A stretch of 64,000 nt of DNA, taken from the IMG/VR virus record IMGVR_UViG_3300021255_001778, positions 1 through 64,000 of that record, one strand, 5' to 3'. A program made the position numbers and the translations under genes. Positions 53,396 to 58,772 of this stretch are shown piece by piece. Position 1 is the first letter of the stretch. Every line of letters starts with the position of its first letter. Under the pieces are notes generated by a model. The model was given only the letters and a program-made list of their open reading frames with translations. It did not search any database and had not been told where the DNA came from. The DNA comes from a virus (Duplodnaviria; Caudoviricetes).

Positions 53396-54103
53396 TTACT
53401 CTTGTTCGCGGGCACTCTTAGTCCATTTATACCAACCATAGATGCAGTTAATAGTCCAGAAAATGAACATGACGACCATCATCCAATTTCCAATCATGAG
53501 GAACATAATTACCGACGCCACATCAATAATCAACCAGTGCAGCCATTGCTCTCTGTACCCTAATACCATCAAGATCTGTGCAATAAACGCAGGGATCGTG
53601 CTGATAGCATCAAGGAACGGAAGCGGATCGTTCGTATGATGTAACACGAGAGTTAATACCGTTACTCCTGCGGCTAATCCACCCATCGTGATAGCCCAGC
53701 CGAGTGTATTCAGCTTCTTGGCTTTGACTTCTGCGGATTTGTTCTCTTTCTTCACTCTGTAGATTTTGTACCATGCGTATATTCCGTACGTTTGCGTGAT
53801 AAAGTAGAACAAATTCTCCCACGCCTCACCCCATAGGTGATTCGGGATTGCTACACCGAACGTGTATGTAAACATCTGGATGTACGCAAAGATATAAAAG
53901 CTGATTTTGCCCTGCGCACAGAATACTACGCTGATCACGCCAGCTATTGCGCATATAATCGAGATCAATCCGTCAGGTGTACCAGTCACATATCCGTAAA
54001 TAATTGCGGCTACCTGAAGCAACAGTCCTAATCCTAAGAAACACCAGTCAAATGGTCTTCTTCCGTTAATAAATTCAGCCTTTAGCTTTTCTGTAAATGT
54101 CAT
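53396..54103 (-). CDS. pnuC: Nicotinamide riboside transporter PnuC
   Basis: Multi-TM; P-F-L-D-A, AQILM, E-Q-W-x-x-W-x-x-x-D, G-W-Y-x-W. Confidence 0.9.
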   Translation of the reverse strand: MTFTEKLKAEFINGRRPFDWCFLGLGLLLQVAAIIYGYVTGTPDGLISIICAIAGVISVVFCAQGKISFYIFAYIQMFTYTFGVAIPNHLWGEAWENLFYFITQTYGIYAWYKIYRVKKENKSAEVKAKKLNTLGWAITMGGLAAGVTVLTLVLHHTNDPLPFLDAISTIPAFIAQILMVLGYREQWLHWLIIDVASVIMFLMIGNWMMVVMFIFWTINCIYGWYKWTKSAREQE

Positions 54104-55187
54104 CGATATATCCTTTCACGCTTAAATAGTTGTCGTAATATGTTCCATCAAGTATTTCATACTCATATCCGAAATAATCGTACAGTCGCATAAGTGTCTC
54201 GAAAAACTCGCATCTGATATCATAATCTCCGTCCGGCATGTATCTCTCTCCGTCATCAACTATCCCGTTATCATGAGGAGCAAGCAAAAAGATCTTGTCC
54301 CATTTGGTAGTCTTTCTATATTTTTCAGCCATCTCGAAAAGGAAATCATAATCTGAATCATTTATGGAAAAGTCTTCCCGTTGTGCGTAATAATATGCGT
54401 ACATGAGTGTCACCATATTGTCAGTATCAGATATAAATATTCCAGGATTCTGCGGATTAGTGATTAGTTCTTCGTTATATTTATGCTGTTCATAAATGTT
54501 ATATATGAAGTCTTTCACCGTAAATTCTGGATCAGTTTTCAGACTGCAATTATCTCTCCCTTTTTCATATGAATATGGCAGACCGTAATACTTTCCTATA
54601 TCTTTAACTAACGTCGTCTTTCCTTCTGATGCTGTTCCGGCAATCAAAATATTGTGACTAAAATATGCTCTGAACGGAGTCGTGATAATGTCCCAGTATT
54701 TTAAAGGATTTTCTCTGCATTGCGTACCAGAAACAGGGTTATATGTTCTATCTCGAATCTCTACACGACATGAGAAGTCACAATATTTTTCTAAGCACTC
54801 CTTATAAAAAGGCTCTCCTACATAAAACGTAACTACATCGTCTTGCTTTATGTTTGTTTTTGTCTGCAATGCGTGTGTCCATACCTTCCAATTATCTGGA
54901 CACATGGACTCGTCTAATCCAAGTTCTGTGTCGTTGATATAGGTCACTTTCACTAACTCGTCTTCGAGATAATTTTTCACGATTCTATACTTTTTCATTA
55001 GAGATAATCCTTCTGGCTGTCCTCTTGGATCGCCGTCATATCCGCATACGACCACATGCGTAAGATCGTTCTTCTTTTTTGACTCCATTATTAAATCAAG
55101 ATGGCCTCTATGCAGTGGGCAATATCCGCCAAAACATATTCCAATATTCATAACTATTCTTTCCTCACTATTCCGATTAAACGACAT
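54075..55187 (-). CDS. nadR: NadR-like NMN adenylyltransferase / ribosylnicotinamide kinase
   Basis: FGGYCPLHRGH (HxGH), VSGT-x-x-R, GTASEGKTTL Walker A, DTD. Confidence 0.9.
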   Translation of the reverse strand: MSFNRNSEERIVMNIGICFGGYCPLHRGHLDLIMESKKKNDLTHVVVCGYDGDPRGQPEGLSLMKKYRIVKNYLEDELVKVTYINDTELGLDESMCPDNWKVWTHALQTKTNIKQDDVVTFYVGEPFYKECLEKYCDFSCRVEIRDRTYNPVSGTQCRENPLKYWDIITTPFRAYFSHNILIAGTASEGKTTLVKDIGKYYGLPYSYEKGRDNCSLKTDPEFTVKDFIYNIYEQHKYNEELITNPQNPGIFISDTDNMVTLMYAYYYAQREDFSINDSDYDFLFEMAEKYRKTTKWDKIFLLAPHDNGIVDDGERYMPDGDYDIRCEFFETLMRLYDYFGYEYEILDGTYYDNYLSVKGYIDDIYRKAKG

Positions 55188-55734
55188 CGATTAAGCACGA
55201 CTTCATTACTTCGAGCGCCGCCTTGTGCTTTTCTGGCGTTGTTCCGGCGCAACAGTCCTTGATAACTCTGATAGTTGACTTTGGAAAAATACTTCTTGCA
55301 ACCAACGCGTTACTTATGACACATATATCTGTACAAAGTCCGACGAAATCGAATTCTATCTCTTCATCCTTCGTACCGGTGTACTCAGTCTGGTCAAAGT
55401 AACTTAAAAGATCGATTCTTAAGAACAGTTCTGTAGCGGCAAATGACTCTTTCTCTATGACAAAAGAGCTAGATACGCATTTTGCTATAGAATTACATAT
55501 TCTTTCTCCGTCTGTACCTTTCGCGCAGTGTATAGGTATATACCTACTTTCAACTAGCTTCTGATAAGCACTCTCAGTATGACTATCTTTTGTTGCCCAG
55601 ATAAAGTCATATTCGTCTACATATCTATCTAAGTATTGGCATATGTTATTTACTGCTGCTACAGCCTCATCCGTACCTAATACTCCGTCTATAAAATCAT
55701 TCTGTGCATCGACAATAATCAGATGCTTTTTCAT
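55177..55734 (-). CDS. pncA: Nicotinamidase/isochorismatase
   Basis: VDAQNDF, D-x-H, HC, EK, GLCTDICV. Confidence 0.85.
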   Translation of the reverse strand: MKKHLIIVDAQNDFIDGVLGTDEAVAAVNNICQYLDRYVDEYDFIWATKDSHTESAYQKLVESRYIPIHCAKGTDGERICNSIAKCVSSSFVIEKESFAATELFLRIDLLSYFDQTEYTGTKDEEIEFDFVGLCTDICVISNALVARSIFPKSTIRVIKDCCAGTTPEKHKAALEVMKSCLIDVV

Positions 55735-57105: not shown

Positions 57106-57251
57106 AGGCACGGGCGAGGATTTGAACCTCGCATGGAAAACCGCCCGTCCTTCATGGCTTAGTTGTTATGCACTTATTTGATGGCATAGTTCCTGGTTTC
57201 ATGAAAGCATTTCCTTACGGCGTAAGCGTCTACCCATTTCGCCACCGCGCC
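57106..57251 (-). ncRNA. 146-nt tRNA-like RNA (acceptor stem, D arm, T arm; mini anticodon hairpin; 80-nt variable arm)
   Basis: GGCGCGG/CCGUGCC acceptor; U8, Leu-type D loop AAAUGGGUAGA; GCGAGG-UUCAAAU-CCUCGC T arm; no encoded CCA. Confidence 0.8.
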
Positions 57252-57255
57252 ATAT

Positions 57256-57273
57256 TGCCATATAAATGTATTG
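57256..57273 (+). promoter_or_regulatory. 18-bp operator-like motif, copy 6 (4 nt upstream of the tRNA-like RNA)
   Basis: Exact copy. Confidence 0.8.
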
Positions 57274-57283
57274 ATTGATTTTT

Positions 57284-57305
57284 CAAAAGCCTGCCTAAGC
57301 AGGCT
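57284..57305 (-). terminator. Terminator of the mazF / dead-recombinase transcript
   Basis: AGCCTGC-TTAG-GCAGGCT then TTT on the - strand. Confidence 0.7.
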
Positions 57306-58346: not shown

Positions 58347-58772
58347 CTACACTAATGTAGCGTTTAAGTAGGAAGCTTTTTGCCAAACCATCAGCAAGGT
58401 TTCCTGATCGATATACGATATAGCCGACGTTGCAAGCAGATTAGCCACCGCTATCTTAGACATATATTCGTCTGGCATCTTCGTGAGATAATTTCCTATA
58501 CGCTCTTTGGACATTCTTTCAGGATTTTCACATAATACCATGCTATCCTTTTTTAGTCCTGTGTCTTTTGATGATACAAAAACATGAGTAGGAAGATTTT
58601 TCTTTTTCACAGAAGATGTTAGTGGCAGAGCGATTATGTTAGGGCTATATTTATTGCCAACATTGTTCTGAAAAACCAGCCCAGGACGCCATCCACTCTG
58701 TTCGCTGCCATGCCCGTCGAATCGCATCAAATAGACCTCACCGATCCTGATACTTCTAGCCGCGCGAGTCAT
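58347..58772 (-). CDS. mazF: PemK/MazF-family endoribonuclease
   Basis: GEVY...GSEQSGWRP...QNNVGN...PLTS...LPTHV...DSMVL, closely following EndoA/MazF motifs. Confidence 0.9.
   Translation of the reverse strand: MTRAARSIRIGEVYLMRFDGHGSEQSGWRPGLVFQNNVGNKYSPNIIALPLTSSVKKKNLPTHVFVSSKDTGLKKDSMVLCENPERMSKERIGNYLTKMPDEYMSKIAVANLLATSAISYIDQETLLMVWQKASYLNATLV

Follow-up and report, generated by a model that had tools for sequence, protein, structure and literature searches.

A phage RNA with a tRNA-like chassis and no anticodon arm points to an uncatalogued RNA family with exchangeable arms

The question raised by this locus is what an RNA with the acceptor end and elbow of a tRNA could be doing in a phage genome when it has no anticodon arm. 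The stretch of DNA analysed here, which we call the window, is the first 64 kb (64,000 nucleotides) of an 83.8-kb IMG/VR phage record, in which the genes from ~28 kb on lie on the minus strand. A sequence-only reading of the window had described an RNA consisting of an acceptor stem, U8, a D arm, a mini-hairpin, an 80-nt arm and a 6-bp T stem, and all of these structural parts were located exactly where that reading had placed them (Table 1). The D loop has 11 nt and carries GG, as in the Leu (class II) type, the acceptor/T stack comprises 13 bp (7 + 6), and CCA is not encoded at the 3' end. An identical copy of the RNA is present in a second, independent assembly of 108 kb (L148). The assemblies in which this phage occurs derive from samples SAMN02144230, SAMEA5383947 and SAMEA5384001. 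The folding energy of the RNA was unremarkable (MFE z = -1.13), and because it is not significant on its own, the case for a gene rests on comparison. A blastn search of the phage GenBank collection gave no match to the element, and an antisense search found no 14-mer of it that was shared with or complementary to the rest of the phage genome.

Table 1. Parts of the RNA gene and of the region upstream of it (RNA nt n corresponds to window coordinate 57252-n)
Feature	Window coordinates	Strand	RNA nt	Description
RNA gene	57106..57251	(-)		146 nt
Acceptor 5' strand	57245..57251	(-)	1-7	GGCGCGG; partner is 57107-57113
Acceptor stem		(-)	1-7/139-145	GGCGCGG/CCGUGCC, 7 bp including one wobble, G4.U142; followed by U8
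D arm	57226..57242	(-)	10-26	3-bp stem 10-12/24-26, GCG/CGC
Mini-hairpin	57215..57225	(-)	27-37	UUAC-GCC-GUAA, 4 bp and GCC loop; occupies the place of the anticodon arm
Cargo arm, "type W"	57135..57214	(-)	38-117	80 nt
Cargo closing helix	57210-57214 / 57135-57139	(-)		GGAAA/UUUCC
Cargo inner helix		(-)	45-52/96-103	CUUUCAUG/CAUGAAGG, predicted
Cargo tip helix		(-)	64-68/81-85	UAUGC/GCAUA, predicted
AU linker and T arm	57114..57134	(-)	118-119 (AU), 120-138 (T arm)	
T stem and loop		(-)	120-138	GCGAGG/CCUCGC, 6 bp, loop UUCAAAU
Acceptor 3' strand and discriminator	57106..57113	(-)	139-145	CCGUGCC; then unpaired U146
Promoter-like TTGAAA-N16-TATATG	57256..57286	(-)		Range includes the repeated motif; TTGAAA 57286-57281, TATATG 57264-57259
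Repeated motif	57256-57275			20 bp, overlaps the promoter
Hairpin and T-run ending the upstream MrpR-like gene	57285..57305	(-)		Read directly in the sequence

Compared with a canonical tRNA, the RNA has the 7-bp acceptor, U8 and a D arm with G18G19, but it has neither the 5-bp anticodon stem with a 7-nt loop (U33, purine 37) nor the 5-bp T stem of a 12-bp branch, and in place of an RF00005 score of at least 29 bits it gave no match to that model at E<=10. ARAGORN with default settings called no tRNA in the window and called none of the 195 distinct relatives described below a tRNA (0/195). A search of the window with Rfam returned nothing at gathering score and only irrelevant weak matches at E<=10, and Rfam 15 contains no model for the family to which the RNA belongs. 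The sequence-only reading had expected tRNA finders such as ARAGORN, and Infernal, to make no canonical call, and had not recognised the RNA as a member of a known family; both points agree with these results. Its statement that the RNA cannot decode conventionally also holds, with no anticodon arm found either directly or after deletion. Of the functions that it had proposed, action as an anticodon-nuclease decoy is unlikely in a family that lacks an anticodon loop altogether; a T-box or stringent-response modulator and a ribosome ligand gained no support here.

An anticodon arm could nevertheless be restored if the arm, or a part of it, were an intervening sequence whose removal yields a working tRNA. 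Introns do exist in phage tRNAs ("enigmatic", Lak-type; PMC6784885), and ARAGORN, when allowed to consider introns, reported the window RNA as a tRNA-Ile(AAU) with a 53-nt intron; this candidate was rejected for its two mismatches in the 5-bp anticodon stem, and no intact anticodon stem flanks the insert. When each conceivable segment of the 93-nt region separating the D arm from the T arm was removed, one at a time, none of the products had a 5-bp stem and a 7-nt loop with U33 and R37; tolerating one mismatch gave only implausible solutions. When 109 Leu-bodied relatives were scanned in the same way, solutions were obtained for 12/109 versus 6/109 after shuffling, several of the 12 being artefacts of tandem tRNAs. 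The intron mode of ARAGORN called 7/195 relatives, with identities that disagree, and short members of the family, in which the D arm and the AU preceding the T stem are only 24-52 nt apart, still lack an anticodon arm and receive no ARAGORN call. Insert-bearing tRNAs are present in L037, a phage locus that also carries a Leu-bodied member of the 7/5 sister family, and this lends the intron reading some support; these are class I tRNAs with 35-49-nt inserts in an intact anticodon arm, and the Rfam tRNA model recognises them. Since they keep the anticodon arm, true insert-bearing tRNAs look different from the RNAs studied here. Taken together, an intron-bearing tRNA is a highly improbable explanation.

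A tmRNA was also reported by ARAGORN, only at a threshold lowered to 80%, and this candidate was rejected, the proposed frame being closed by UAG/UAA just after the D stem in many relatives. Because of this closure, we treat as chance the observation that the two arm differences at nt 57-58 between the window RNA and its nearest relative (L288) leave the amino acids of the frame proposed by ARAGORN unchanged. The likeness to tmRNA is that in both a large domain unlike tRNA projects from a tRNA-like acceptor/T domain. The window RNA differs in having a true D stem, no conserved G3.U70 (its wobble is G4.U142, which is lost in L288), no pseudoknots and no reading frame that is conserved and open in relatives, and there is no Rfam match.

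The comparison on which the case for a gene depends was made with RNAs that share what we call the 7/6 chassis, defined as a 7-bp acceptor, U8, a D arm of the form GGCG-(G/A)AAU(A/G)GGUAGA-CGC, AU, a 6-bp T stem (G-Y-N-N-G-G) with the loop U(G/U)CAAAU, and no anticodon arm. The window RNA has every one of these sequence and structure features. Hundreds of loci matched patterns in which the end of the D arm and the T arm stand a variable distance apart. Within IMG/VR, >117 contigs have a Leu-type D arm and, 80-110 nt further on, a T loop; in ~85 of these contigs the flanks can form an acceptor stem of 6 or 7 bp. The 7/6 chassis was obtained from IMG/VR, from 66 metagenome loci that are apparently mostly from rumen or gut, and from five genomes or MAGs, all of Firmicutes and including one isolate, Paenibacillus haidiansis M1. 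The short-form pattern occurred in 0/401 sampled genomes of the phylum of Paenibacillus haidiansis, a result that shows only its rarity in chromosomes. As a result, 195 distinct 7/6-chassis sequences were collected, with 130 different acceptor strands. The acceptor start in the relatives was picked by best pairing, and nearly all alignment rows begin exactly 7 nt before U8. An acceptor pairing of 6 or 7 bp was present in 159/195 and all six T-stem pairs in 186/195. The T loop was UGCAAAU in 169/195 and UUCAAAU, as in the window RNA, in 26/195. The discriminator base varies, being A in 114 sequences, U in 54, C in 19 and G in 8, and CCA is encoded in 1/195. The D arm, of the type found in the canonical phage tRNA-Leu D arms of L134, is nearly invariant in the family and the AUG preceding the T stem is invariant, although the searches demanded near-exact D-arm and T-arm motifs, so that the family is under-sampled and the conservation of the searched motifs is partly circular.

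The helices were examined in an alignment of 60 sequences. All 7 acceptor pairs, 3 T-stem pairs and 5/5 of the pairs that close the arm change on both sides, with 96.4% of the acceptor cells and 99.7% of the T-stem cells paired. Overall, 91.2% of the cells were paired, compared with 74.2% after shuffling and 37-52% with slid partners, and the covariation score was 0.494 versus 0.167 for shuffled alignments, none of 500 shuffles (0/500) and none of the slid controls reaching as high a value. A UUA-loop-UAA hairpin with loops mostly of 4-8 nt was found in ~75 relatives, the stem having been required by the search pattern, so that its conservation is not independent evidence. In hand-anchored sequences, the arm-closing helix starts directly after the UAA of this hairpin and stops directly before the AU; it has at least 5 continuous pairs in 50/59, with a mean of 5.3 versus 2.2 for mismatched partners. 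These patterns indicate that the helices of the chassis and the helix closing the arm are under selection, as judged from the sequence comparison. The sequence-only reading had named decay without compensatory changes among homologues as the outcome that would speak for a pseudogene, and what was found among the 195 relatives is compensatory change. Its view of the RNA as a tRNA mimic and not a decayed gene agrees with this covariation and with the intact helices of the nearest relative. A decaying tRNA-Leu pseudogene would be in keeping with the lack of a call by the standard finders and with the unremarkable folding energy, but not with compensatory changes and near-perfect helices in 195 relatives, and the 130 different acceptor strands indicate that these are not recent copies. 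On this sequence evidence, the 7/6-chassis RNAs make up a large family that has not been catalogued and is carried by phages of Firmicutes from the gut and rumen.

The closest relative of the window RNA is a sequence shared by two metagenome loci, L288 and L308. It differs at 15/146 positions, none of which breaks a helix: three pairs are changed on both sides (2-144, 3-143 and 122-136), two single changes keep pairing (G4.U142 to A-U, and a G-C to G.U), and the other differences are in loops. Its acceptor is GAUACGG/CCGUAUC. The acceptor readings with a G3.U70 pair or a G-1:C73 pair (Ala-like or His-like), which had been suggested for the window RNA, are absent in this relative, and the discriminator varies across the 195 sequences, so these readings were not upheld. 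Its 80-nt arm, by contrast with the differing chassis, shows 4 differences, which are located in loops or convert G-C to G.U. The type W arm was found only in the window RNA, with its copy, and in L288/L308, and its inner helices are therefore given as predictions, with a single homologue and four uninformative substitutions.

The arm of the window RNA is one of many. At least 10 recurrent arm types were found among the hairpin-bearing members, each conserved across different contigs. Type A, to which the copy in a prophage of Paenibacillus haidiansis M1 (L363) belongs, folds as an extended hairpin in which 19 pairs covary and one strand of 10 nt is conserved, a sign that the cargo itself is under selection. 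Identical chassis bear unrelated arms in L124 and L009, and the same arm is found on different chassis in the window and L288 and again in L051 and L124. A further case is L141, the ligase of which is 97% identical to that of the window: a related chassis occupies the homologous position, its arm is entirely different, and a second chassis RNA precedes it. Judged by these sequences, the middle part is a swappable module, or cargo, on a conserved chassis. A separate observation concerns the loop motif AGGAACUAYGCCAWCA, which is shared only with one unrelated cargo type, its other matches being due to chance.

The region upstream of the RNA suggests that it has a promoter of its own. The sequence-only reading had proposed such a promoter lying under an operator-like repeat, and both hexamers are present with the described spacing and are overlapped by the 20-bp motif, which occurs in 7 copies in the window versus 0.02 expected. 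A distance of 7 nt separates the -10 hexamer TATATG from nt 1, and the primary transcript would begin at nt 1 or just before it. The hairpin and T-run that end the upstream gene are kept in L138 and L142-L151; our terminator scan passed over this hairpin, its T-run being only 4 long. The product of the upstream gene matches the core-binding domain of MrpR only. MrpR is the SPbeta master repressor, which has a recombinase fold, has lost recombinase function and binds a repeated element in intergenic regions (PMC10516654). By analogy, the 20-bp motif may be a putative operator of the MrpR-like protein, and the RNA would then be made once this repressor leaves the repeated motif, i.e., on induction or during lytic growth.

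The genes of this region are arranged in the order MazF-like (58347-58772), MrpR-like, RNA, a 52-aa ORF and an RNA ligase (PF09414; 56267-56929); without an intervening terminator, the RNA is followed by the 52-aa membrane protein, the ligase and NAD-salvage genes. In sister phages, which were found through the ligase and the MrpR-like protein, the promoter region upstream of the slot and the flanking genes are kept, and the content of the slot varies. It is a canonical tRNA-Ile(UAU) in L138 and L145-L147, a tRNA-Gln(UUG) with a second kind of chassis RNA in L149, a PD-(D/E)XK endonuclease gene in L142 and L143, and nothing in L144. At the level of sequence, these comparisons establish a mobile, tRNA-gene-like cassette with its own promoter motif. 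They also bear on the possibility that the element is an attachment-site remnant beside a recombinase gene. It does adjoin a gene of recombinase fold, but the match of the encoded protein is to the MrpR core-binding domain only and the SPbeta MrpR is a repressor without recombinase function (PMC10516654). Furthermore, the slot is empty in L144 even though the MrpR-like protein there is 75% identical, and the attP reading was rejected because an attP site would not allow this. Whether taken as a pseudogene or as an attachment-site remnant, a relic is an extremely improbable account of the element.

The RNA is preceded by the promoter and followed, without an intervening terminator, by the ribosome-binding site, a position that would also suit a cis-acting leader, i.e., an RNA whose main role is to signal processing or stability for the operon, with the 5' end of the mRNA set by RNase P or RNase Z cleavage or protected by the fold. 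Processing signals of the tRNA-like, mascRNA type are an established precedent, and a weak mascRNA match was obtained with Rfam (E 1.5). An ORF start led by a Shine-Dalgarno sequence lies within 120 nt downstream in 53/76 family members, and many members, including the window RNA, lie 15-40 nt before a ribosome-binding site. However, the ORFs just downstream are unrelated across loci, members also occur in tandem and inside phage tRNA arrays, and the same operon is found in sister phages with an ordinary tRNA or nothing in the slot. A processing signal would also not need more than 10 conserved, covarying cargo types. We therefore regard a leader as unlikely.

The order of the neighbouring genes could matter locally in another way. 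The RNA might belong to an RNA-damage module, as a cofactor, substrate mimic or decoy for the adjacent RNA ligase and/or the MazF-like endoribonuclease, as has been proposed for the Y RNA-like YrlA and the band-7-associated tRNA of RNA-repair operons. The literature contains proposals of tRNA-like RNAs encoded beside RNA ligases (bioRxiv 10.1101/312249), and one family member, in L305, has two YrlA-like RNAs after it (E 6e-9 and 9e-5, below gathering score). Nevertheless, when 10 window proteins were compared by tblastn with all fetched loci, no conserved partner emerged, and the other loci with relatives contained no homologue of the ligase, MazF or the MrpR-like protein. Clustering of 516 neighbouring ORFs gave no cluster present in more than 3/62 loci, and a search of viral_contigs with the RNA ligase for related loci found nothing. 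Sister phages with the same ligase have a tRNA-Ile or nothing in the slot, and the RNA with the same cargo follows a reverse transcriptase instead. No TROVE (Ro60), Band_7 or RtcB was found in the 83.8 kb of the phage record, which is only 70% complete; the proteins of a Band-7/RtcB repair system are thus not seen there, and the adjacent ligase is of the PF09414 type. The adjacent RNA ligase and MazF are, as far as the sequences of these loci tell, not partners of the family, and an RNA-damage module is a quite unlikely explanation. The lack of a conserved ligase/MazF partnership and the modular nature of the 80-nt arm were both absent from the sequence-only reading. Ordinary tRNAs lie nearby in about half of the loci, and in the 23-tRNA array of L134 every canonical tRNA encodes CCA and the chassis RNA does not.

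The neighbourhood of the cargo twin raises the further possibility of a link to reverse transcription, in which the tRNA-like end is a primer or template handle for a phage retron-type reverse transcriptase, or the elements are spread by such an enzyme in a SINE-like manner. In L308, the RNA with the type W cargo is the first of three tandem chassis RNAs and starts 10 nt after the stop codon of a reverse transcriptase, which is 58% identical to that of the present phage (70087-71187). Homologues of this enzyme are also found in L283 and L337, and template switching could create chimeras of chassis and cargo. On the other hand, the reverse-transcriptase locus of the present phage has no chassis RNA and is 13 kb from the element, and no shared or complementary match of 11 or more nt to the element was found within it. 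Homologues of the enzyme occur in only four of the >450 fetched loci, and no target-site duplications are visible at two filled sites. An RNA linked to reverse transcription is accordingly a very unlikely reading.

Our literature search found no published description of the 7/6-chassis family. Its nearest described counterparts are RNA C and RNA D of phage T4 (rnaC and rnaD; species 1 and 2), the roles of which are still unknown (PMC3014915). Small and stable, these two RNAs (139 and 119 nt) are encoded in the T4 tRNA cluster, and rnaC resembles the window RNA in having a T arm, paired ends and no anticodon arm. It differs in having no sequence relationship to it, no Leu-type D arm, a 5-bp T stem and no modular cargo, and the T4 RNAs come from an Escherichia phage, whereas the 7/6-chassis family is found in phages of Firmicutes. 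Class II tRNA-Leu (RF00005) shares the 7-bp acceptor, U8, the 3-bp D stem, the 11-nt GG loop, the T loop and, at the place of the variable arm, a long arm; unlike it, the chassis RNA has no anticodon arm, a 6-bp T stem, a G55 T loop in 169/195, a variable discriminator and no CCA. tRNA-Sec and the allo-tRNAs (Mukai et al., PMC5389517) also combine a branch other than 7/5 with a long extra arm and are likewise found in both phages and Clostridia of the rumen, and the stack of tRNA-Sec has 13 bp, as in the chassis RNA, but their branches are 8/5, 9/4, 8/4 or 9/3 with a decoding anticodon arm, compared with 7/6 without one. YrlA (RF02553) and the band-7-associated tRNA are tRNA mimics that keep the D/T elbow, have another module in place of the anticodon stem and are sometimes found beside RNA ligases, as is the window RNA. 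YrlA is circularly permuted relative to the window RNA, with its two ends forming the Ro-binding stem, and its model gives no match in the window. By the features that define them, the window RNA is not a canonical tRNA, an intron-bearing tRNA, a tmRNA, a YrlA or a band-7-associated tRNA.

The explanation that we favour, and consider rather more probable than its opposite, is that this is a separately promoted, non-decoding, tRNA-derived RNA in which a constant chassis serves processing and stability and an exchangeable cargo arm does the work. The chassis corresponds to the acceptor end of a leucine-type tRNA together with its elbow, which is the part of a tRNA that RNase P, RNase Z and the CCA-adding enzyme recognise. 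The tRNA-like end could therefore allow the two nucleases of the host, and perhaps also its CCA-adding enzyme, to excise and stabilise the RNA. EF-Tu, in turn, recognises a 12-bp acceptor/T branch (PMC5389517), and the RNA would probably stay out of the ribosome owing to its missing anticodon, its 13-bp stack, which lies outside that branch length, and the G55 T loop. The 80-nt cargo arm would then be the working part, binding a protein or RNA partner. As a more speculative extension, which we put forward tentatively, phages of Firmicutes, together with many aquatic phages through the 7/5 sister family, may use a natural "tRNA scaffold", i.e., a host-processed chassis that displays interchangeable effector modules against targets in the host or in rivals, an RNA decoy aimed at a defence protein being one example. 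Recombination would move the modules from chassis to chassis and from slot to slot, and prophage induction would turn on the window RNA as one of these effectors.

This finding has a direct consequence for annotation, in that tRNA finders and Rfam miss the genes of chassis RNAs and the intron mode miscalls them as intron-bearing tRNAs. Stable tRNA-like RNAs in phage tRNA clusters have been known since T4 RNA C and D and are still unexplained. The present family offers a tractable version of them, with ~200 distinct members, a sharply defined chassis and at least 10 conserved cargos that are swapped like cassettes, and it is unusual in its 13-bp acceptor/T stack and in a T loop with G at position 55. 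What is new with respect to T4 RNA C and D is the Leu-type D arm, the 7/6 branch, the modular cargo and the hosts, and it is through the modularity of the cargo that the question of the function of such RNAs becomes testable.

The Leu-type D arm that marks the window's non-decoding, tRNA-shaped chassis RNA (the 7/6 form, with a 7-bp acceptor and a 6-bp T stem) was also found in a sister family with a 5-bp T stem (the 7/5 branch), represented by L010, L067, L219, and about 80 more IMG/VR loci. Members of this family have hypervariable middles of 85-120 nt, and their acceptor is often AGUCAGG/CCUGACU with discriminator A. A few were weak matches to the Rfam tRNA model, with a very large insertion.

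A second RNA with a Leu-type D arm is present in the 83.8-kb phage record that contains the window (G000), and it has a UGCAAAU T loop, a 6-bp T stem, and only about 4 acceptor pairs. The L149 homologue differs from it by compensatory changes, both in the T stem and in the inner helices. Several odd tRNA-like genes were also noted in the adjoining cluster (65.9-67.1 kb of G000). Two class I phage tRNAs of L037 bear inserts of 35 and 49 nt in an otherwise intact anticodon arm, and these inserts look like phage introns of the unexplained kind.

Coordinates of the RNAs, repeated motif, and reverse-transcriptase locus
Feature	Location	Strand	Counterpart
Insert-bearing class I phage tRNA	L037:11136-11248	minus	
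Insert-bearing class I phage tRNA	L037:12594-12695	minus	
Second Leu-D-arm RNA	G000 65748-65859, outside window	minus	L149:2760-2880
20-bp motif, core CAATACATTTATATGGCA	window 22709, 33606, 39356, 39428, 46136, 57256, 58825		
Retron-type reverse-transcriptase locus, repeated ncRNA cassettes	L308:7420-9300		G000 69400-71650, outside window

At the reverse-transcriptase locus of L308, three tandem 7/6-chassis RNAs are inserted after the stop codon of the reverse-transcriptase gene and ahead of a small Cys-rich ORF; the homologous reverse transcriptase of G000 (58% identical) directly adjoins the Cys-rich ORF. Other RNAs accompany chassis RNAs elsewhere: two YrlA-like (Y RNA-like) RNAs lie directly downstream of one (L305:8-256, minus strand; E 6e-9 and 9e-5, both below the Rfam gathering score), and another phage contig with a chassis RNA has a Pistol ribozyme match (L051:739-804, 63 bits) and two int-alpA RNA matches.

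With respect to protein genes, the chassis RNA and RNA ligase of the window share their direction of transcription with NAD-salvage genes at 53396-55734, which encode a PnuC transporter, a NadR-like kinase/adenylyltransferase, and an isochorismatase-family protein. A ligase homologue and a Band_7 gene of an unrelated phage contig are separated by about 2.3 kb (L139:4001-7954), and no tRNA-like RNA was seen in the two gaps read there. The 20-bp motif, present in seven copies in the window against 0.02 expected, probably serves the MrpR-like protein as operator or else acts as a phage-specific promoter element. The promoter-proximal slot after the MrpR-like gene is variously filled in sister phages by tRNA-Ile(UAU), tRNA-Gln(UUG), a PD-(D/E)XK endonuclease ORF, or chassis RNAs, or is empty, and is a hot spot of cassette exchange (L138, L142-L149, L151).
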